Below, in pieces: positions 3,609 to 13,395 of a stretch of 64,000 nucleotides of DNA. Both the position numbers and the translations under genes were made by a program. The stretch comes from Escherichia coli. Its GTDB lineage: Bacteria; Pseudomonadota; Gammaproteobacteria; Enterobacterales; Enterobacteriaceae. How positions within the stretch are numbered: the stretch's first letter is position 1; every line of letters starts with the position of its first letter. The notes under the pieces are model-generated. The model saw only the letters and a program-made list of their open reading frames with translations. It ran no database searches and was not told the origin of the DNA. The stretch lies in assembly GCF_013315695.1 (NCBI RefSeq), contig NZ_CP054353.1, one strand, 5' to 3'.

Positions 3609-4423
3609 GTATGGAGTTGATGGTTAAAGCGATGAAAATTCGAGTGGGAAATCCATTGCGAAAACTGGTTCTGATTAAGCTGGCTGATAATGCCAGCGAT
3701 CAGGGTGAGTGCTGGCCCAGCTACCAGCATATTGCTGACCAGTGCGAGATTAGCAAACGTTCTGTGATGAATCATATTGCGGCCCTTTGTGAGTCCGGGC
3801 TGGTAAAAAAAGTCACCCGGAAAGGTGAAAAAGGTAACTCAAGTAATATCTATCTCCTTCATCTTGATGGTGCAGGAGATTCACTAGGGGGTAGTGCAAA
3901 TAATTCACTATCTGGTGCAGCAAATTCACCAGGTAGTGCAGGAGTTGCACCAGGGGGTAGTGCAGGAGATTCACCCAGAACCAGTCACTCTTTTGAACCA
4001 GTCAAAGAACCAGTCAATGAACCAATAGCTGTTGGTGCATCTGCTGATGAGTCTGTGCGAGTTCGTTCAAACCGACCGGAATACTCTCCGGAGTTTGAGC
4101 AGGCATGGCTGGCCTATCCAAAACGTGCTGGTGGCAATTCAAAATCTGCAGCCTTCAAAGCCTGGAAAGCCCGTTTGAATGAGGGGGTAAACCCCGAAAC
4201 CATGCTGGAAGGTGTGAAACGCTACGCGGGCTGGGTATCTGCGATGGGTAACAGCGGCACACAATTTGTGAAACAGGCTGTCACGTTCTTTGGCCCGGAT
4301 CGTCATTTCGAAGAATCCTGGGAAGTTCCTGCGGTATCTGCAGTCAGACGCGAGGACCCGTACTTCAAAGCCAGTTACGACAACGTGGACTACAGCCAGA
4401 TCCCGGAAGGATTCAGGGGGTGA
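3605..4423 (+). CDS. Phage replication initiation / replisome-organizer-like protein with N-terminal winged HTH
   Basis: 272 aa; N-terminus MSMELMVKAMKIRVGNPLRKLVLIKLADNASDQGECWPSYQHIADQCEISKRSVMNHIAAL; internal iteron-like DNA repeats; position after the cII/rha block. Confidence 0.6.
   Translation: MSMELMVKAMKIRVGNPLRKLVLIKLADNASDQGECWPSYQHIADQCEISKRSVMNHIAALCESGLVKKVTRKGEKGNSSNIYLLHLDGAGDSLGGSANNSLSGAANSPGSAGVAPGGSAGDSPRTSHSFEPVKEPVNEPIAVGASADESVRVRSNRPEYSPEFEQAWLAYPKRAGGNSKSAAFKAWKARLNEGVNPETMLEGVKRYAGWVSAMGNSGTQFVKQAVTFFGPDRHFEESWEVPAVSAVRREDPYFKASYDNVDYSQIPEGFRG
3865..3985 (+). repeat. Iteron-like direct repeats inside the replication gene (candidate ori)
   Basis: Repeated motifs GGTGCAGGAGATTCAC (x2), AGGGGGTAGTGCA (x2), GGTGCAGCAAATTCACC, AGGTAGTGCAGGAG; encode a G/S/A-rich linker GGSANNSLSGAANSPGSAGVAPGGSAGDSP. 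Confidence 0.5.
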
Positions 4424-4914
4424 TCATGAGTCTTTTGAATGAAGTTCAGAAATTCATTGAAGCCCATCCGGGCTGTACTTCCGGAGACATTGCGGATGCT
4501 TTTGCTGGTTACTCACGGCAGCGCGTTCTGCAGTCAGCAAGCAAGTTACGTCAGAGTGGGCGTGTGGCTCACCGTTGTGAAGGAGATACACGCAGACATT
4601 TCCCACGCCTGACTGAGAGAGCGCAGGATCCGGAACCACAACCAGTTCGTGAAACCAGACCTGTGCGCAATTTCTATGTCGGCACTAACGATCCCCGTGT
4701 GATTTTGTGCCTGACCCGCCAGGCTGAAGAACTGGAGTCCAGGGGCTTATACCGTCGTGCTGCAACGGTGTGGATGGCGGCATTCCGTGAAAGCCACTCC
4801 CAGCCAGAACGAAACAATTTTCTGGCACGTCGTGAGCGGTGCTTACGGAAAAGCAGCAAGCGCGCTGCATCGGGTGAAGAGTGGTATCTGTCAGGGAATT
4901 TCGTGGGGGCTTAA
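4420..4914 (+). CDS. Hypothetical protein with PerC/Pch-like C-terminal motif
   Basis: 164 aa; C-terminal LESRGLYRRAATVWMAAF...RRERCL resembles the PerC-family GLWRRAA..W...RR..C signature; ATGA-coupled to neighbours. Confidence 0.45.
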   Translation: MIMSLLNEVQKFIEAHPGCTSGDIADAFAGYSRQRVLQSASKLRQSGRVAHRCEGDTRRHFPRLTERAQDPEPQPVRETRPVRNFYVGTNDPRVILCLTRQAEELESRGLYRRAATVWMAAFRESHSQPERNNFLARRERCLRKSSKRAASGEEWYLSGNFVGA

Positions 4915-5567
4915 TGAGTAATAAATATTGCCAGGCGCTGGTGGAACTGCGGAACAAACCAGCCCATGAACTGAAGGAAGTGGGCGATCAGTGGCGCACG
5001 CCGGACAACATTTTCTGGGGAATTAACACCCTGTTTGGCCCGTTTGTTCTGGATCTGTTCACTGACGGTGATAACGCCAAATGTGCTGCGTATTACACTG
5101 CGGAAGACAACGCGCTGGCGCATGACTGGTCTGAACGTCTTGCGGAGCTTAAAGGTGCTGCCTTTGGTAATCCCCCGTACAGCCGCGCCAGTCAGCATGA
5201 GGGGCAATACATCACCGGCATGCGTTACATCATGAAACATGCCAGTGCCATGCGTGATAAAGGCGGGCGCTATGTTTTCCTGATCAAAGCTGCCACCAGC
5301 GAAGTGTGGTGGCCGGAAGATGCAGATCATATTGCTTTTATTCGCGGGCGTATTGGTTTTGAACTGCCTGCCTGGTTTATCCCGAAAGACGAAAAGCAGG
5401 TGCCAACAGGTGCTTTCTTCGCTGGTGCTATTGCTGTTTTCGACAAGACCTGGAAGGGACCGGCAATCAGCTACATAGGGCGCGATGAACTTGAGGCATG
5501 TGGTGAGGCGTTTCTGGCGCAGGTTCGCCAGCAGGCGGAAAAACTGGTCAGGGAGATGGCGGCATGA
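4914..5567 (+). CDS. Phage-type DNA N6-adenine methyltransferase (Dam family)
   Basis: 217 aa from ATG 4914 (TAATG overlap); catalytic NPPY motif (AAFGNPPYS); typical lambdoid nin-region gene. Confidence 0.8.
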   Translation: MSNKYCQALVELRNKPAHELKEVGDQWRTPDNIFWGINTLFGPFVLDLFTDGDNAKCAAYYTAEDNALAHDWSERLAELKGAAFGNPPYSRASQHEGQYITGMRYIMKHASAMRDKGGRYVFLIKAATSEVWWPEDADHIAFIRGRIGFELPAWFIPKDEKQVPTGAFFAGAIAVFDKTWKGPAISYIGRDELEACGEAFLAQVRQQAEKLVREMAA

Positions 5568-5890
5568 CGACGTTAACTCAATGCCAGCAGCAGGTGCTGG
5601 ATATGCTGATTTCTTATCAGAAAGAACGTGGCTTCCCGCCAACCAATCAGGAGGTGGCAACCATGCTGGGATACCGTTCGGTGAATGCAGCGGTGGAGCA
5701 TCTTCGCGCACTGGAGAAAAAAGGCGTCATCACGATAAAGCGTGGCGTGGCCCGGGGGATAACGCTTCATACTGCGATGAAGGACGACGACAGCGAGGCG
5801 GTCGGGATTATCCGCGCACTGCTTGCCGGTGAGGAAAACGCAAGGCTGCGTGCAACCCACTGGTTACATGAGAGGGGCCTGAAAGTATGA
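5564..5890 (+). CDS. LexA DNA-binding-domain-like protein lacking the S24 peptidase domain
   Basis: 108 aa; QQQVLDMLISYQKERGFPPTNQEVATMLGYRSVNAAVEHLRALEKKGVI parallels the LexA N-terminal winged helix ([50 protein letters not shown]). Confidence 0.75.
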   Translation: MTTLTQCQQQVLDMLISYQKERGFPPTNQEVATMLGYRSVNAAVEHLRALEKKGVITIKRGVARGITLHTAMKDDDSEAVGIIRALLAGEENARLRATHWLHERGLKV

Positions 5891-6282
5891 AGCTAATACT
5901 GCCTTTTCCGCCCAGCGTGAACACGTACTGGCGACACCCCAACAAAGGGGCGTTTGCTGGTAAGAGCCTGATAAGCGCGGCGGGGCGAAAATTCCAGAGC
6001 GCGGCGTGTGCAGCAATAGTTGAGCAGTTACGTCGTCTGCCGAAACCAACGTCGGCACCTGCTTCAGTGGAGATCGTGTTGTTTCCTCCGGATAACCGGA
6101 TCCGCGATCTGGACAACTATAACAAGGCGCTGTTTGACGCCCTGACCCACGCGGGTGTGTGGGAAGACGACAGTCAGGTGAAAAGAATGCTGGTGGAGTG
6201 GGGACCGGTTATCCCGGAGGGGAAGGTCGAGATCACTATCAGTAAGTACGAAAAAGCGAGTTGCAAATTAGCAACTCGGTAA
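5887..6282 (+). CDS. rusA: RusA Holliday-junction resolvase
   Basis: 131 aa; characteristic DLDNYNKALFDALTHAGVWEDDSQV; ATGA coupling. Confidence 0.85.
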   Translation: MKLILPFPPSVNTYWRHPNKGAFAGKSLISAAGRKFQSAACAAIVEQLRRLPKPTSAPASVEIVLFPPDNRIRDLDNYNKALFDALTHAGVWEDDSQVKRMLVEWGPVIPEGKVEITISKYEKASCKLATR

Positions 6283-7261: not shown

Positions 7262-8257
7262 GTGACTGTGAGAGCACTACTGACCCCTGAAATTGCCCCG
7301 CGTATGGGGATCGTATTGTTCAGGCCAGGTTCAGAGCTGATGCCCCTGTTTATGCAGGGGCGTGTCCTGCTGGAGCCTGAGCCGGAGCGTTATTCATCTT
7401 TCGCCAGTGGTGCCGTTCCGGCGGCATCACAACCGCTGGCGGATGATCCTGCCGTTCGGGCCGTGTTCCGCCATGAGGCAGTGATCCGTCGTGCTGGTGG
7501 CGTGGAATGTCTTGAAAGCTGGTTACTTCGTGAAAAAGGCTGCCAGTGGCCTCATTCCGGATGGCACAGCGAGAACATGACCACAATGCGACACGCTCCG
7601 GGTGCAATCCGTCTGTGCTGGCACTGCGATAACCAGCTGCGCGATCAGTTCACGGAACGGCTGGAATCAATGGCAACGGATAACTGTGCCCGCTGGGTGT
7701 TGTCTGTTGTGCGTCGGGATCTCGGTTTTGATGACAGTCACGTTGTGACAATGCCGGAACTGTGCTGGTGGCTGATTCGTAATGACCTGGCGGATGCCTT
7801 ACCGGAAAGTGCAGCCCGTAAGGCACTGAGATTACCGAAGCCTGTTGTGCCGTCTGTCACCCGGGAAAGTGACCTTGTGCCTTCGGTTCCTGCCACCAGC
7901 ATCATCCAGGATAAAGCGAAAAAGGTGCTGGCGCTGAAAGTGGATCCGGAGTCGCCGGAGTCTTTTATGTTACGCCCCAAACGTCGCCGCTGGGTTAATG
8001 AAAAGTACACGCGCTGGGTTAAGACGCAGCCGTGTGCATGTTGTGGAAAGCCTGCTGATGATCCCCACCACCTGATAGGCCACGGTCAGGGGGGAATGGG
8101 TACAAAAGCGCATGACCTCTTCGTGCTGCCTTTGTGCAGAAAGCATCACGACGAGCTGCATGCGGATACCGTGGCATTTGAAGAGAAGTATGGCTCCCAG
8201 CTGGAGCTGATATTTCGTTTTATCGATCGTGCGCTGGCAATAGGCGTGCTGGCCTGA
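7262..8257 (+). CDS. DUF968-family prophage protein (YdfU-like) with C-terminal Cys/His cluster
   Basis: 331 aa; C-terminal ...TQPCACCGKPADDPHHLIGHGQGGMGTKAHDLFVLPLCRKHHDELH; common in Rac/Qin-type nin regions. Confidence 0.6.
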   Translation: MTVRALLTPEIAPRMGIVLFRPGSELMPLFMQGRVLLEPEPERYSSFASGAVPAASQPLADDPAVRAVFRHEAVIRRAGGVECLESWLLREKGCQWPHSGWHSENMTTMRHAPGAIRLCWHCDNQLRDQFTERLESMATDNCARWVLSVVRRDLGFDDSHVVTMPELCWWLIRNDLADALPESAARKALRLPKPVVPSVTRESDLVPSVPATSIIQDKAKKVLALKVDPESPESFMLRPKRRRWVNEKYTRWVKTQPCACCGKPADDPHHLIGHGQGGMGTKAHDLFVLPLCRKHHDELHADTVAFEEKYGSQLELIFRFIDRALAIGVLA

Positions 8258-8274
8258 TTTTGTGGAGAAAGTTG

Positions 8275-8646
8275 ATGCGTGATATTCAAATGGTTCTTGA
8301 ACGTTGGGGGGCATGGGTGGCAAATAATCACGAGGATGTGGAATGGTCATCTGTTGCTGCAGGTTTTAAGGGATTAATTCCTTCGAAAGTAAAATCCCGC
8401 CCGCAATGTAGCGATGACGATGGCCTGATCATTAGCTCTGCGATGACAGTTCTTAAGAAAAAGGAACCGTATCAATACGAATTACTGGAAATGTATTATG
8501 TGTATGGGGTTACATTACGGGTGTTGGGGGTAAAACTGGGGATATCACTTAATCAGGTTGTTATCAGACTGCAGAAAGCTGAAGGGTTTATTGACGGTTG
8601 TCTGGCAATGTTGGGGGTATCTTTAGAAATTGATTGTTACATATAG
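8275..8646 (+). CDS. Late-gene antiterminator Q (QuuD-like)
   Basis: N-terminus MRDIQMVLERWGAWVANNHEDVEWSS matches the QuuD/DLP12-type Q family; sits directly upstream of the late region; GGAG RBS before ATG 8275. Confidence 0.75.
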   Translation: MRDIQMVLERWGAWVANNHEDVEWSSVAAGFKGLIPSKVKSRPQCSDDDGLIISSAMTVLKKKEPYQYELLEMYYVYGVTLRVLGVKLGISLNQVVIRLQKAEGFIDGCLAMLGVSLEIDCYI

Positions 8647-8721
8647 TAATAAATTCAATCAAAGTAAATAATCATATTTTATTATAACCTCCTGATGATA
8701 CCTGTTCATTGGGAGGTTATT

Positions 8722-9339
8722 ATGGATAAAAATGTAGAGCATGTATTAGTTGATGCAATTGAAAATAAGCAATCTTTAACAGTCGTTTACTTAGGAGGGA
8801 GCCAGCCCGGAACATTAAGGAATATTTCTCCGATTAGTATAAATGGGGATAAATTGCGGGCAAGATGCCATAGTTCTGGAGCAGTAAAGGTTTTCAATCT
8901 TGGGAAAATACAGTTACCCAGTGACTCCTGCGCGGTATCTATGCACTATGGAGATTTAGAAGTTAAAGCTTATGAGACGATGCAGAGCGTAAATGACAAC
9001 TTTCATGCCCTTTATCCTGAAGGACGATGGGGTGTTGATTTTAATGAGCATCGCTTTGCTTTATTTGATTTTTTTAAAAACGGGAAACGAAAAAAAACGG
9101 CATTTATGGCAATTGAGTTCAGGGAAAGAGATGAAGAGAAAATAATAACAGGTGTAACAATTGATATTGGTATATCTGGAACAGTGATTTCTGAGAAGTC
9201 CCGAATCCCAAAAAGACGACCATGGGTAGTGGTTGGTCCCGAACACGGAGAATACAGTACTTATTCAACTTTGGACAAGGCTGCTACAGCGTTTTTTGAG
9301 AGGCTTTCGTTGATAGCATCCGGCCTGGAAGATAATTGA
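8722..9339 (+). CDS. Hypothetical moron protein (205 aa), unknown function, AT-rich
   Basis: Strong RBS GGGAGG 5 nt before ATG 8722; no recognisable motif, no signal peptide; followed by a terminator; lies between Q and the tRNA block. Confidence 0.6.
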   Translation: MDKNVEHVLVDAIENKQSLTVVYLGGSQPGTLRNISPISINGDKLRARCHSSGAVKVFNLGKIQLPSDSCAVSMHYGDLEVKAYETMQSVNDNFHALYPEGRWGVDFNEHRFALFDFFKNGKRKKTAFMAIEFRERDEEKIITGVTIDIGISGTVISEKSRIPKRRPWVVVGPEHGEYSTYSTLDKAATAFFERLSLIASGLEDN

Positions 9340-9468
9340 TTTTATGTTTGGTATTCAGAGTTCGCCGTGCTTAAGAAAGTCAAGATTCTAAAAATACTGA
9401 ATGAGCTACTTGTGTTATAACAAAAATGCTATTAGTGTGTTAAGAGTGGTTACTTCGCCACACAACTT

Positions 9469-9493
9469 AAACCCGCCACTGAGCGGGTTTTTT
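9469..9493 (+). terminator. Rho-independent terminator downstream of the moron gene
   Basis: AAACCCGC-CACTGA-GCGGGTTT hairpin followed by a T-run. Confidence 0.6.
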
Positions 9494-9617
9494 GTACCTG
9501 TAAACTTGGTGCAGTACAGTAAACACGCTGGTGGTCGTGAATACTGGCTTTTTATCTTGCTGGCTTTTTAGACAAGAGTTATTGGTATGTCACGTTAACC
9601 GGAAAGGGTAAAAAGAC

Positions 9618-9815
9618 ATGCTGAAACAGCAGGATATGACAGAAACCGCCAGAGTTGTGTTTGATGAATTAAGCGTTACCGAACCGGCGACAGTCGGGGA
9701 GATTGCGCAGAATACTTACCTTTCACGCGAACGCTGCCAGTTAATACTGACCCAGCTTGTTATGGCGGGTCTGGCAGACTATCAGTGCGGTTGTTACAGA
9801 CGCCTTCAGTCCTGA
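9618..9815 (+). CDS. Small hypothetical protein (65 aa), possible winged-helix regulator
   Basis: ORF with AAAGGGTAAAAAG region before the ATG; helix-rich sequence GEIAQNTYLSRERCQLILTQLVMAGLA; no confident family. Confidence 0.35.
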   Translation: MLKQQDMTETARVVFDELSVTEPATVGEIAQNTYLSRERCQLILTQLVMAGLADYQCGCYRRLQS

Positions 9816-9949
9816 AGGCTTTTTATTTGTGGTGAATGGGCGGCTGGTGGGGGGGCGACACCTGTCAGTCCTTTGCTTATGTGTTGATGATAATTTACCT
9901 TTTGGGGCTATAATTGAGCTAACCAATTGCTAATGAAAGTAAAATTATA

Positions 9950-10663
9950 ATGGCTGTTGTCTGTTCAGTTATCATGGTTTGCTCCCCAATTAATATTTTT
10001 CTTGAAAAGGATACGTTGTCACTTAAGCCAGGCTCAGTTGTTCTGGCCACCAAATGCATCAGGGAGCTTTTCCTTATGCATTATGGCAAAGTTAAAATTG
10101 TCGATATAAGCGAATCCGTCGTAAGTCAATATCTGGAAAGTCAGCATAAGCTGACGAGGACTCGTCTGACTGACATTCCGCTTTACCTGTTGCTGGAACC
10201 CAACAATCCTGCGTTGGCTGCGGCTTTAATTACCAGCCAGGGATTTTCCGGAGAGGCCACGGATATGTTTCTTATGATGGCCTGCCTGTCTCTGTTTGAA
10301 ACAGATGAACGGATGTCATTGTTTTTAAGTGGATGTTTATCCAGCATAAGTGCCAAAGTCAGGGCGATAATTCAGACAGATATATCAGCAAGCTGGACGC
10401 TTGGTGCGATTGCTCTACAGTTGCATATGAGTGAGAGTTTGTTAAAGACAAAACTGAAAAATGAAGGGGGCATGTTCAGTCGCTTGTTGCTGGAAGAGCG
10501 GATGCGTGTTGCTGTAAATATGTTATGTTCCCGGCATGGATATGGACAGGCTATAGCAGAAAAATGCGGTTATTCAAGCAGGTCCTACTTTATTTCTGTA
10601 TTTCACCGCTATTATGGCTTCCCGCCAGACAGATATGTATCCAGGCAAGGGCTTGATTATTGA
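9950..10663 (+). CDS. AraC-family transcriptional regulator (prophage-encoded; start uncertain)
   Basis: C-terminal AraC-type HTH (WTLGAIALQLHMSESLLKTKLKNEGGMFSRLLLEERMRVAVNML...GYSSRSYFISVFHRYYGFPPDRY). Confidence 0.7.
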   Translation: MAVVCSVIMVCSPINIFLEKDTLSLKPGSVVLATKCIRELFLMHYGKVKIVDISESVVSQYLESQHKLTRTRLTDIPLYLLLEPNNPALAAALITSQGFSGEATDMFLMMACLSLFETDERMSLFLSGCLSSISAKVRAIIQTDISASWTLGAIALQLHMSESLLKTKLKNEGGMFSRLLLEERMRVAVNMLCSRHGYGQAIAEKCGYSSRSYFISVFHRYYGFPPDRYVSRQGLDY

Positions 10664-10691
10664 TTTTCATCTGATTATTATTTTTTGGCTC

Positions 10692-10767
10692 GGCCCTTTA
10701 GCTCAGTGGTGAGAGCGAGCGATTCATAATCGCCAGGTCGCTGGTTCAAATCCAGCAAGGGCCACCA
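10692..10767 (+). tRNA. ileZ: tRNA-Ile2 (anticodon CAU, ileX/ileZ-like)
   Basis: 76 nt cloverleaf GGCCCTT...AAGGGCC-A-CCA; anticodon loop TTCATAA; close to the E. coli ileX sequence. Confidence 0.8.
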
Positions 10768-10774
10768 TCACATA

Positions 10775-10851
10775 CCGCCATTAGCTCATCAGGATAGAGC
10801 GCCAGCCTTCGAAGCTGGTTGCGCGGGGTTCGAGTCCTCGATGGCGGTCCA
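10775..10851 (+). tRNA. argN: tRNA-Arg (anticodon UCG)
   Basis: 77 nt; acceptor CCGCCAT/ATGGCGG; anticodon stem-loop CCAGC-CTTCGAA-GCTGG; T-loop GGTTCGAGTCC; 3' CCA. Confidence 0.8.
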
Positions 10852-10864
10852 TTATCTGTACCCT

Positions 10865-10941
10865 GCGTTATTAGCTCAGCCGGACAGAGCAATTGCCTTC
10901 TAAGCAATCGGTCACTGGTTCGAATCCAGTACAACGCGCCA
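10865..10941 (+). tRNA. argO: tRNA-Arg (anticodon UCU)
   Basis: 77 nt; anticodon loop CCTTCTAAG; T-loop GGTTCGAATCC; 3' GCCA; one acceptor-stem mismatch. Confidence 0.8.
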
Positions 10942-10952
10942 GACTTATTTTT

Positions 10953-10980
10953 CCCGGCTCGCTTTTGCGGGCTTTTTTTT
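10953..10980 (+). terminator. Terminator-like hairpin plus T8 after the tRNA cluster
   Basis: GCTCGC-TTTT-GCGGGC followed by TTTTTTTT. Confidence 0.45.
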
Positions 10981-11433
10981 AAATGTCTCACAATTCAGAC
11001 GGTTGACAGTTGTCTGTTTTGCGGGGAGTTTGTTAAAAGAAACTGGCATGGTGAATCCCCCTGTGCGGAGGGGCAATCAGCAACTGGTGTTTTGTCACCG
11101 ACCCTTATCCTTTCTGTGCGGGTTCAGGTGCTGATACTGAACTCACCGGGAGGCACCCGGCATCATGTGCATGATGATACAGATACGCGGCTTTAGCCCC
11201 TCTCCGGAGGGGCTTTCTTGTGGGCAAAAAAAAGCCCGAGTGGGTTCGGGCAACAGCATGAGATATACATTTTTATAATCGAATGGATTTTAACCAGAAT
11301 TCATAAGGCTGCGCAACTGCGCGGTCTTTTTCGAATTGCGGGCTGTCGTCTCTCTTCTGCCATTGTCCTGTAACTTCCGGACTTCAGCCCGCTCCTTATT
11401 TTACTCACAATATTATCCCGGCCGGGAGGATTC

Positions 11434-13395
11434 ATGGCATTTAAACACTATGACGTGGTCAGGGCGGCATCGCCGTCAGACCTTGCGAAACGACTGACAC
11501 AAAAACTGAAGGAGGGGTGGCAGCCATTTGGCAGTCCGGTGGCCATCACGCCTTATACCCTGATGCAGGCCATTGCGGCGGAAGGTGATGTCACCACACC
11601 TGTGGTGGTGAAGCCGTCGGATGGAGAAGGCGCAGTTATCAGCAACACCAGCAACCCGGAGTATTACTTTGTTGTTGCCCTGGCCGGGCAGTCAAACGGT
11701 ATGGCGTATGGTGAAGGGCTTCCGCTGCCGGAGACATATGACCGTCCGGACCCGCGTATTAAACAGCTGGCGCGTCGCAGCACTGTCACGCCGGGTGGTG
11801 CGTCCTGTAACTACAATGACATTATTCCTGCGGACCACTGCCTGCATGATGTTCAGGATTTGAGTAAGTTTTCACACCCGAAAGCCAGCGCAGCTCAGTA
11901 TGGATGCGTGGGGCAGGGATTACATATCGCGAAGAAATTGTTGCCGTTTATTCCGGCGAATGCCGGTATTCTTCTGGTTCCGTGCTGCCGTGGTGGTTCT
12001 GCATTTTTGGCGGGCGATGAAGGTACCTTCAGCGAATCCACCGGCGCAAGCGAGACCTCGGCACGCTGGGGTGTAGATAAGCCACTGTACAAGGACCTGC
12101 TTACCCGTACTCAGGCCGCACTGAAGGCCAACCCTAAAAATATTCTGCTTGCAGTGGTCTGGATGCAGGGCGAGTTTGATTTGAAACAGGGTGCATACGC
12201 CACTCAGCCGGGGCTGTTTGATTCCATGGTGGAAAAATATCGTTCTGACCTGTCGGAATTCGGAGGTCAGTGTCTCGGGGGCTCTCCGTCATCAGTTCCC
12301 TGGATTTGTGGCGACACGACCTACTACTGGAAGCAGACTTATTCTTCGCAATACGATGCGGTGTATGGTGCATATAAGACGAAATCCGCAAAAAAAATCT
12401 TCTTTGTGCCGTTTATGACGGATGAAAACGGGCGAAATGTGGGTACCAACGAGCCGTCAGAAGATCCGGATGTTGCGGATATTGGGTATTACGGAGCCGG
12501 TGGTCGAACGGACGCCAAAACCTGGACGACGGCTGACCGTAAAACGCATTTTGGATCATGGGCACGTCGTGGGATTATTTCCGACCGTCTGGCAACGGCG
12601 ATTCTTGTGCATGCCGGGAGAACCGCTGAATTCATTACCGGAAAACAGCCTGATACGGTGAAGCCCACCGGACCTTCCGGTGAAGGTACGGAGAGAGAGC
12701 CGGAAGGTCCGGTCAGTAACCGAACCCTGATGAGTCTGCTGGCGTCCGGCGAAGACCTGGCATCACAGGGCTGGCGCTATTATCACAAACCGGCGAGCGG
12801 AGACAATGTTAACAAAAACATTGCTGAAGCGGTGGTCAGTGATGCGGGGGCTACGGGAGGTAAGGCCCTGCAACTGAATAAACCGGAAAACCACATCTGG
12901 TTTCTGGAGCATGATGCAGCCGGGCAGGGGGCAGAGTTGCTGAAGAAAGGAGGACGTGTGAGCGTACGGTTTAAGTTGCCGGGTTCACTGGTGCCGAATC
13001 AGTTTGCCCTGGGCATTTACTGGCAGTTGTCGTCCCTGCCGGAGGGAGTGACGCTGGCAGAGGAAGGCAACGACATGCTGATGTCCTTCTTTCTGCAGAC
13101 GGATGCGACGAACCTGAACGCGATGCACCACAAGAAGCCGAATGCGAAGCTGGAAACGTTCGGGGTCTTTGATAACGGATGGCACACACTGGCTTTTGAG
13201 TTTGCCGGAAACAACAGCATTCAGGTGACGCCGGTACTGGATGAGAAACGGGGGACGCCGTTCACACTGGTGAAATCTCCGGCATCAGGGGCGGCGGACA
13301 AACTGCAACTGACAGGCATATCAAAGGCGGCGACATATACGCTGCTGATTGACAGTGTGAAGGTGGAAGTGAACAACGCGGATGCCGCGGCATGA
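11434..13395 (+). CDS. nanS: Prophage 9-O-acetyl-sialate esterase NanS-p (DUF1737 plus SASA/SGNH esterase)
   Basis: 653 aa; N-terminus MAFKHYDVVRAASPSDLAKRL (DUF1737); esterase motif YYFVVALAGQSNGMAYGE; sits where Stx phages carry nanS-p downstream of stx. Confidence 0.85.
   Translation: MAFKHYDVVRAASPSDLAKRLTQKLKEGWQPFGSPVAITPYTLMQAIAAEGDVTTPVVVKPSDGEGAVISNTSNPEYYFVVALAGQSNGMAYGEGLPLPETYDRPDPRIKQLARRSTVTPGGASCNYNDIIPADHCLHDVQDLSKFSHPKASAAQYGCVGQGLHIAKKLLPFIPANAGILLVPCCRGGSAFLAGDEGTFSESTGASETSARWGVDKPLYKDLLTRTQAALKANPKNILLAVVWMQGEFDLKQGAYATQPGLFDSMVEKYRSDLSEFGGQCLGGSPSSVPWICGDTTYYWKQTYSSQYDAVYGAYKTKSAKKIFFVPFMTDENGRNVGTNEPSEDPDVADIGYYGAGGRTDAKTWTTADRKTHFGSWARRGIISDRLATAILVHAGRTAEFITGKQPDTVKPTGPSGEGTEREPEGPVSNRTLMSLLASGEDLASQGWRYYHKPASGDNVNKNIAEAVVSDAGATGGKALQLNKPENHIWFLEHDAAGQGAELLKKGGRVSVRFKLPGSLVPNQFALGIYWQLSSLPEGVTLAEEGNDMLMSFFLQTDATNLNAMHHKKPNAKLETFGVFDNGWHTLAFEFAGNNSIQVTPVLDEKRGTPFTLVKSPASGAADKLQLTGISKAATYTLLIDSVKVEVNNADAAA

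Follow-up and report, generated by a model that had tools for sequence, protein, structure and literature searches.

A WYL-domain protein predicted from a gene between the Q21-family antiterminator gene and a putative late promoter cassette of an Escherichia coli lambdoid prophage

We analysed a window of 64,000 nucleotides from Escherichia coli (contig NZ_CP054353.1) and, within it, a 205-codon open reading frame (ORF) that follows the gene for the antiterminator Q of a lambdoid prophage. The encoded protein has a new architecture, in which a WYL sensor domain, recognisable from profile and structure comparisons, is joined to an unassigned, probably non-enzymatic domain. Its gene appears to lie upstream of the late promoter cassette of the prophage, in a slot that holds different cargo in related phages. 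The best reading of its role, which we put forward tentatively, is that of a single-stranded-nucleic-acid sensor in phage-host or phage-phage conflict, most probably one that protects the lysogen. The coordinates of all features are given in Table 1.

An earlier note on this DNA, made from its letters alone, had called the 205-aa ORF and placed it 75 nt after Q. Both statements were confirmed, with an identical RefSeq annotation and with Q ending at 8646, and region 8260-9620 of the window was a base-for-base match to a lambdoid prophage of E. coli MS7163 (NZ_CP026853.1). A second allele of the ORF, found in E. coli AVS0969 and several IMG/VR prophages, showed 72% protein identity and 78% DNA identity. 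Between the two alleles the ratio of nonsynonymous to synonymous substitution rates (dN/dS) was 0.23 for the whole ORF, 0.13 for the N-terminal domain and 0.11 for the core of the C-terminal domain, while the inter-domain linker evolved neutrally (about 1.2). We also carried out an exhaustive HMMER search of 1.84 billion cluster representatives (cut-off E<=1e-3), which returned a family of 490. Because of the dN/dS of 0.23 and the 490 matching representatives, the ORF is a real gene under purifying selection. UniProt uses a 214-aa form (B7ME76) that begins at an in-frame ATG at 8695, a codon that lacks a Shine-Dalgarno sequence and falls within a hairpin. The N-termini of homologues, together with a GGGAGG Shine-Dalgarno sequence at 8711-8716 with a 5-nt spacer to the ATG, favour the start at 8722.

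The composition of the ORF was deviant and its presence patchy: it was present in 50 of 5,426 complete E. coli genomes, against 902 for the leader element that flanks it. The G+C content was 0.396 for the ORF (0.32 at third codon positions), 0.519 for the window and 0.564 for the upstream DUF968 gene, so the ORF is far more AT-rich than that neighbour, as the earlier note had stated for the flanking phage genes. This did not extend to Q, which had a G+C content of 0.422, and the Q-ORF spacer had 0.253. Since Q itself is AT-rich, the low-GC island comprises Q, the ORF and the downstream regulatory region with the late promoter, and not the ORF alone. No signal peptide, membrane segment or N-terminal hydrophobic stretch was found in the protein (maximum Kyte-Doolittle 19-mer 1.03), in agreement with the earlier note on the signal peptide.

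For the single sequence, searches of Pfam, NCBIfam, PHROGs and PADLOC returned nothing beyond PHROG families without an assigned function (phrog_8498 over the full length) and WYL hits below threshold. In PADLOC-DB 2.0 only the generic Cas-associated WYL models matched (1.4e-3 and 6.6e-3), and no model of a known anti-phage defence system was reached. We then used a family profile built from 113 relatives to search the PDB. The profile matched the DriD entries at 2e-5 to 5e-5 and BrxR and CapW at 0.003-0.009, with PafBC weaker, and the family segment YxGGSxPGxxRxhxP aligned with DriD residue for residue. Pfam WYL reached E<=1e-3 in 13 of the 113 family members and E<=0.1 in 58. Foldseek against the AlphaFold database found full-length relatives in Vibrio, Pseudoalteromonas, Moritella, Marinobacter, Methylococcus and others, including relatives labelled WYL, and the copy in E. 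coli S88 (B7ME76) already carries the UniProt label 'WYL domain-containing protein'. The predicted structure of the N-terminal domain showed a single helix at residues 3-14 followed, from residue 19, by a five-stranded β-barrel of the Sm/SH3-like fold. By these profile and fold comparisons the N-terminal ~65 aa are confidently recognisable as a WYL domain. The statement of the earlier note that the protein matches no recognised family was thus overturned by the sensitive profile search that it had named as a check (DriD at 2e-5); of the structure prediction that it had also named, the N-terminal half gave the WYL fold and only the C-terminal domain was left with an unassigned one.

The WYL pocket is known for single-stranded DNA (ssDNA) sensing in DriD, CapW, BrxR and PafBC, and for binding of single-stranded RNA in WYL1 of Cas13d systems. 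Across the ORF family, Y23, G26 and R33 were invariant, K56 was conserved at 99%, S27 at 90% and R46 and R48 at 68% each. The HMMER alignment paired S27, R33 and K56 with DriD S172, R178 and R204. In CapW the ssDNA pocket is lined by one Ser and three Arg (S144, R164, R168 and R184; PMC11662680). Working by hand through the DriD alignment and the motif positions, we infer counterparts in the ORF protein for three of the four, S144, R168 and R184, among S27, R46 and K56; S27 would probably pair with S144 and K56 with R184.

The C-terminal domain was modelled separately (residues 86-205), with a predicted local distance difference test score (pLDDT) of 85 and a predicted template modelling score (pTM) of 0.76, and profile searches with it matched no family. 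Its conserved residues are basic, aromatic and other (W103, K119, N120, G121, K125, R166, P167 and W168), and none looks catalytic. No helix-turn-helix (HTH) was found in the protein by Pfam, NCBIfam and PADLOC searches or in the predicted model, and there was no WCX dimerisation domain, the C-terminal fold being a different one. The transcription factors with a winged HTH, a WYL and a WCX domain (DriD, CapW, BrxR and PafBC) therefore differ from the ORF protein, which lacks the first and the last of these. They also stand beside a repressed defence operon, whereas the ORF protein has ~200 aa and is carried on phages and satellites, and the W-Y-L motif is replaced by k-v-R-A-R-C in the ORF family. 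WYL1 of type VI-D CRISPR-Cas13d (6oaw) has an N-terminal ribbon-helix-helix and belongs to a CRISPR locus, and the ORF protein has neither. A phage and satellite family of ~490 clusters with the same pocket and no DNA-binding domain suggests that the sensing module is also used on the phage side.

Most members of the family are stand-alone proteins of 180-215 aa, and they occur in phages, satellites and defence islands. Distant homologues, with 28-39% identity, occurred in several settings. One precedes a lysis cassette (L008) and one is flanked by terminase and structural genes (L061). Others neighbour cI/LexA-type repressors (L063, L083) or an integrase that is followed by QatABC (L065, L085), and in P4-like elements with a primase they stand behind a repressor-like HTH gene (L059, L060). 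In a Thalassobium prophage (L085 10575-14412) the complete QatABC lies one gene, the integrase, away from the homologue, and in Leucothrix (L079 673-4824) the homologue directly follows NsnB/NsnA-like genes, with a PDC-S15-like gene also beside it. Some homologues carry an N- or C-terminal membrane anchor (P0142, P0034, P0155 and L070 3610-4848), and one of these (P0155) has two tandem WYL domains and a C-terminal anchor. In two others (P0141 and P0091, residues ~200-370) an extra domain of ~130-170 aa is fused C-terminally to the WYL-family protein. The same domain is a separate gene directly upstream of the WYL gene in L065 5272-5961 (= L085 7272-7961), a Rosetta-stone case, and that upstream gene matched positions 246-367 of phrog_31886 (blastp 5e-17). 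The extra domain was absent from the window and had no Pfam or PADLOC match. A pattern-limited scan of 100,044 species genomes found 16 loci of the family scattered over many phyla, and this distribution is the pattern expected of mobile-element cargo.

The position of the ORF relative to the late promoter was examined by comparison of loci. A TAnnnT hexamer lay immediately next to the conserved GTTAAGAGTGG / GTTAAGAG in 8 loci, whose upstream sequences are of five unrelated types, and a TTG-containing −35-like hexamer was present 16-17 bp further upstream in four of the five upstream sequence types, the Stx2a_1447/mEp460 type being the one without it. The DLP12-type locus reads TTTACG-N16-TATGCT at this place and the window TTGTGT-N17-TAGTGT. 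Between the two alleles of the ORF region, TTGTGTTATAACAAAAA, downstream of the ORF, formed a 100%-conserved island in surroundings that were 77% identical, whereas the 5′ half of the Q-ORF spacer was not conserved. From this comparison we conclude that the putative late promoter cassette lies at about 9410-9494, downstream of the ORF. The earlier note had placed the ORF where Q-modified late transcription starts and had named Stx as an example of cargo in the Q-proximal slot. Late transcription and a likeness to Stx cargo are not supported by the comparison with DLP12-type, E. coli 142, phiP27, SfIV, mEp460 and Stx2a_1447 loci, which sets the ORF stop (9339) ahead of the predicted pR′/tR′ cassette. 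Q of the Q21 family, like all lambdoid Q proteins, acts on a cassette ahead of the late genes that combines a promoter with a σ-dependent pause element and a terminator. A TGtTATAAC extended −10-like motif at 9413-9421 overlaps the putative pR′, and one of the −10-like hexamers here could serve as the σ-dependent pause element and not as the −10 of the promoter. A Q-binding element of the Q21 type, with two adjacent 8-bp direct repeats, is not claimed, as the only repeat was TGTGTTA at 25 bp distance (9411-9417 and 9436-9442).

The late-leader element (9439-9494, GTTAAGAGTGGTTACTTCGCCACACAACTTAAACCCGCC...GGCGGGTTTTTT) folded at −20.1 kcal/mol in RNAfold. Its terminator hairpin has the stem 9469-9476/9483-9490 and a T-run to 9493, also by RNAfold, and was not listed by a simple consensus terminator scan. 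The 902 genomes that contain the element include only 50 with the ORF. Among phage records it was found in 12 by megablast and in 381 by blastn, many of them Stx phages and nearly all without the ORF. Because this terminator is common to ~900 genomes that nearly all lack the ORF, the hairpin at 9469-9493 appears to be a shared tR′. The earlier note was right about the hairpin and its T-run, although not in assigning them to the ORF as its own terminator. It had also called the ORF a moron, and the promoter and terminator of its own that define one were not apparent, given a spacer in which no conserved σ70-like promoter was seen and a terminator that is evidently shared with the late leader. 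The leader resembles the short pR′ leader RNAs (λ 6S RNA and StxS) in its predicted anatomy, in which a constitutive promoter is followed by a short leader with secondary structure and, directly before the late genes, by an intrinsic terminator; unlike these, it is predicted to be only ~50 nt long and belongs to no Rfam family at E<=1. The Rfam search of 8200-11500 gave no match in the spacer, the ORF or the leader, and a literature search on the leader sequence and on mapping of the DLP12 late promoter found nothing specific.

The consensus terminator scan predicted no terminator between Q and 9469. The corresponding promoter scan of the spacer gave no usable promoter on the + strand, with promoter-like hits overall at or below the shuffled expectation. 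Three overlapping terminator-like hairpins with T-runs were seen at 8191-8256 (+), at the end of the DUF968 gene and just upstream of Q, so early transcription probably has to be antiterminated to reach Q and the ORF. With the late cassette downstream of the ORF, no terminator from Q to 9469 and three hairpins before Q, the most economical view makes the ORF the final gene of the early-right transcript. On this layout the ORF is probably transcribed with Q from the early operon and not by Q-modified late transcription. The best σ70-like match of the region lies on the other strand, at 8708..8681 (−), with TGAACA-16-TATAAT (10/12), inside the hairpin and pointing into the 3′ end of Q. It is reminiscent of λ paQ; promoter-like hits were no more frequent than in shuffles.

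Q matched the Q21 structures 6p18 and 6jnx at 5.6e-10 by phmmer. The occurrence of the ORF followed that of this Q allele, the 3′ two-thirds of Q (8400-8646) being present in 51 of the 5,426 genomes and the ORF in 50. A viral scan for the family was run with a 20-sequence alignment, and all 54 E. coli-type IMG/VR loci had the gene order DUF968, Q, ORF, leader, which together with the 490 representatives bears out the conservation in related prophages that the earlier note had named as a check. Between the two alleles of the module the DNA identity was 84% for Q, 78% for the ORF and 77% for the leader, compared with 94% for the flanking DUF968 gene and 97% for the 65-aa ORF on the other side. 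The lower identity of Q, ORF and leader than of their flanks and their joint occurrence indicate that Q, the ORF and the promoter form one old mosaic module. The association of Q and ORF, as seen in these alignments, may be no more than physical linkage, and a functional tie to Q is conceivable.

The Shine-Dalgarno sequence of the ORF was described as near-ideal in the earlier note, and this is true of its sequence and spacing. However, it is buried in the stem of a predicted hairpin of −20.5 kcal/mol (RNAfold). The 114-nt region around this hairpin had a z of −3.19, and 0 of 200 shuffles folded as well. The stem was kept in six allelic versions, with 96.7% of cells paired. Two independent single-nucleotide polymorphisms (SNPs) strengthen or lengthen it (17 loci), and one weakens both the stem and the Shine-Dalgarno sequence (3 loci). 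As modelled, the ribosome-binding site is probably inaccessible by default; the palindrome could instead act as a DNA site. Several copies of the region were disrupted. In one locus, a sequence that is unrelated and probably an insertion sequence (IS) element was inserted in the 5′ arm of the hairpin (prophage L031, ~5215-6000, with ~780 bp of extra sequence in place of the arm). In prophage L057 (~4400-5830) the first 78 codons were unmatched and ~1.2 kb of surplus sequence lay between Q and the rest of the ORF, and the ORF copy of prophage L056 (4865-5480) had a 1-nt length change.

The slot between Q and the leader holds unrelated genes in other phages. DLP12-type prophages have quuD, a porin gene (−), the leader element and then essD. 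E. coli 142, SfIV, mEp460 and Stx2a_1447 have opposite-strand genes without an assigned function between Q and the leader element, and phiP27 has a same-strand 409-aa gene there. This phiP27 gene, L22 (L077 1251-2480), is annotated as hypothetical, and its C-terminal half matched the PADLOC PD-Lambda-1 models at 2e-89. By this comparison of loci the ORF is accessory cargo in a variable slot between a Q21-family Q gene and the late cassette, and the view of the earlier note that it is a conserved accessory gene in a cargo slot beside Q was borne out, the slot elsewhere holding a porin gene or a PD-Lambda-1-like gene. The Lc/NmpC porin gene of PA-2/DLP12 and the phiP27 gene thus share with the ORF the slot from a Q21/QuuD-type Q to the late leader, and their proteins are unrelated to the ORF protein. 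Much of the other slot cargo reads against Q and hence brings a promoter with it, whereas the ORF reads in the direction of Q and no promoter is evident for it. Stx-type cargo (stx, nanS-p) is similar in that the ORF is also an accessory gene near Q in a lambdoid prophage, and the window has the layout of tRNA genes, AsxR and esterase gene. However, that cargo lies downstream of pR′/tR′ and the tRNA genes and depends on Q. The ORF, being upstream of the putative late promoter, does not appear to be late-operon cargo of the Stx kind. For annotation this means that Q21/QuuD-type lambdoid prophages have a cargo slot on the Q side of the late promoter, in which stx-like Q dependence should not be assumed. 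With a porin gene, a PD-Lambda-1-like gene and several unknown genes, the slot looks like a recurrent home of conflict genes that is worth systematic mining. The opposite-strand slot genes of Stx2a_1447, SfIV, mEp460 and E. coli 142 (L002 862-2425, L003 281-1351, L004 504-1430 and L005 1966-2412, respectively) belong to phrog_3482, 16807, 2802 and 3152, had no PADLOC match and form a pool of uncharacterised cargo.

In the mechanism that we tentatively favour, the protein would be made with Q as the last gene product of the early-right operon, and transcripts that are not antiterminated would stop at the shared tR′. Translation would be kept low by the hairpin around the ribosome-binding site. 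In its basic WYL pocket (S27, R33, R46/R48 and K56) the protein would bind single-stranded nucleic acid from phage replication, induction or DNA damage, and the C-terminal domain (K119, K122, K125, R166, W103 and W168) would complete the crevice or relay the signal by protein-protein contact. In DriD and CapW it is the WCX domain that completes the ligand crevice (for CapW: PMC11662680). The outcome would be a function in phage-host or phage-phage conflict, most probably one in which the lysogen is protected. We ranked lysogen-protective sensing or exclusion ahead of a counter-defence decoy, a modulator of the Q switch and a silent toxin, in this order, because of the neighbours in the slot, the placements of homologues beside repressors, integrases and defence islands, and the membrane-anchored relatives.

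Several observations weigh against this sensor model. Pfam WYL (PF13280) gave only 0.067 with this protein alone, which is below threshold. The namesake W-Y-L motif is not kept, the strand reading D-K-L-R-A-R-C with a family consensus of k-v-R-A-R-C, although the motif is degenerate in accepted members too (WHV in CapW and NYL in DriD). The C-terminal domain has no effector-like features, and its orientation to the WYL domain is uncertain in the full-length model (pTM 0.58). The hairpin showed no double-sided compensatory changes and no covariation above shuffles, so that its support comes from stability and conservation. The late cassette was placed by comparison between loci only. A literature search with the protein accessions and on phage-encoded WYL proteins turned up no publication on this protein; WYL was mentioned in a Gifsy-1/RtcR paper and a P2/P4 hotspot paper as reference-list citations only. 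Finally, the ORF points in the direction of the lytic early operon, and no separate promoter is evident for it. This arrangement would suit a role in the lytic cycle, for instance counter-defence, no less than protection of the lysogen.

Counter-defence by a decoy is the next reading in order, although we consider it unlikely. Made early with Q, the protein would soak up the ssDNA alarm for CapW (CBASS) or BrxR (BREX), so that the host defence operons stay off. The ORF runs in the direction of Q without a predicted terminator in between, and its product is a small, single-gene protein like many phage inhibitors, with the same kind of pocket and neither a DNA-binding nor an effector domain. In CapW the WYL domain is the part that senses ssDNA, and CapW boosts CBASS on λ prophage induction, with a ~100-fold decrease in λ yield (PMC11662680), and BrxR-type WYL repressors raise BREX expression during infection. 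However, a stoichiometric ssDNA sponge would have to be made in large amounts, which a sequestered ribosome-binding site does not favour, and the membrane-anchored homologues, the chromosomal defence-island homologue beside NsnA/NsnB and the cI and integrase neighbours are typical of genes expressed in the lysogen. It is improbable that the protein instead regulates phage development, sensing single-stranded nucleic acid from replication or damage, or binding the late leader RNA through its Sm-like barrel, and so tuning Q-dependent late transcription or its timing. The inherited linkage of the ORF with a Q allele fits such a role, but physical linkage within a 1.2-kb mosaic module does not show functional coupling; most of the distant homologues have no Q nearby and stand beside terminase, integrase or cI genes, and other Q21-family cassettes, for example that of DLP12, work without such a gene. 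In the wider form, that a WYL protein without a DNA-binding domain copies the host alarm sensor and either blinds the ssDNA-triggered derepression of CapW-CBASS or BrxR-BREX during prophage induction or couples a replication or ssDNA signal to the Q late switch, the idea is conceivable but doubtful. If true, a decoy or a coupling to Q would establish a kind of phage regulator or counter-defence that is new and combines a WYL domain with a previously undescribed C-terminal fold.

Two further readings are both very improbable in our view. One puts the late promoter in the 75-nt spacer, with the ORF as the first late gene, or puts the ORF inside a long pR′-tR′ leader that is constitutive in lysogens, and takes 9469..9493 as the ORF's own terminator. 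The spacer is AT-rich with −10-like hexamers, pR′ promoters are constitutive with leaders that can span hundreds of nt (StxS, 258 nt), and in phages with a λ-type Q, such as Ayreon, a terminator follows closely after Q and small cargo ORFs separate it from the conserved terminator. Against this arrangement, Q21/QuuD-type relatives have opposite-strand cargo between Q and the leader with a fixed −10-like hexamer just upstream of the leader, conservation between alleles is found at TTGTGTTATAACAAAAA and not in the 5′ half of the spacer, and neither the promoter scan of the spacer nor the ~900 genomes with the terminator and without the ORF agree with it. The other reading makes the protein a harmful toxin or abortive-infection effector that stays untranslated until a trigger opens the hairpin. 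The Shine-Dalgarno sequence is indeed very strongly sequestered, in a stem strengthened further by two allelic SNPs, IS insertions and a frameshift inactivate some copies (L031, L056 and L057), some homologues are membrane-anchored, and an XRE-type HTH gene lies upstream in L059, L060 and L082 in a layout like that of toxin-antitoxin systems. The sequence has no toxin-like domain or catalytic residues, however, the E. coli locus has no antitoxin candidate, and purifying selection with presence in ~1% of genomes indicates a tolerated gene. Should the protein turn out to serve as a decoy, to act in exclusion or to modulate the late switch, the mechanism would be new and would give a handle on the signal that phages read.

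Table 1. Features of the Q-ORF-leader region, in coordinates of the 64,000-nt window
Feature	Coordinates	Strand	Details
Antiterminator Q, Q21 family, 123 aa	8275..8646	+	phrog_79 1.1e-43; RefSeq 'antiterminator Q family protein'
Q-ORF spacer, 75 nt, G+C 0.25	8647..8721	+	no terminator and no convincing σ70 promoter shared by both alleles
Predicted stem-loop, 15 bp with 7-nt loop	8684..8720	+	stem 8684-8698/8706-8720; buries GGGAGG; ends 1 nt before the ATG
ORF, 205 aa	8722..9339	+	RefSeq WP_000360285.1, 'hypothetical protein' (E. coli MS7163), same coordinates
WYL domain (Sm-like β-barrel after a helix), codons 1-66	8722..8919	+	basic, pI 9.4
Linker, codons 67-85	8920..8976	+	pLDDT ~50 at residues 69-75; fast-evolving
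C-terminal α/β domain, codons 86-205 and stop	8977..9339	+	helix, three strands, variable loop 134-166, two strands, long helix
Late promoter region (pR′), putative	9410..9438	+	TTGTGT (9410-9415), 17-nt spacer, TAGTGT (9433-9438)
Late-leader element	9439..9494	+	small hairpin 9446-9461, then intrinsic terminator 9469-9493

Beyond the late leader, a conserved 65-aa ORF at 9618-9815 matched phrog_331 and is named 'TrmB family' in O157 annotations. Further terminator-like hairpins were seen at 9527-9548 and 9802-9819 (+), one before and one after this ORF, and their position beyond the late leader points to several terminators in series before the late genes. A gene for an AraC-family regulator related to YdeO/GadX (NCBIfam 4e-31, below cut-off) was found at 9950-10663 (+), between the late leader and the tRNA genes. 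Since it is present in only about one third of the ORF-bearing loci, it is a second, independent cargo gene. Just downstream of the three tRNA genes (10692-10938) and upstream of the gene for a NanS-p-like esterase (11434-13395), Rfam matches were obtained for STnc100 at 11017-11225 (+; 131.7 bits) and for AsxR at 11229-11281 (−; 63 bits, the Rfam gathering score), where AgvB also matched more weakly. This layout of tRNA genes, AsxR and esterase gene is that of the late region of Stx phages, and no stx is annotated between the tRNA genes and the lysis genes.

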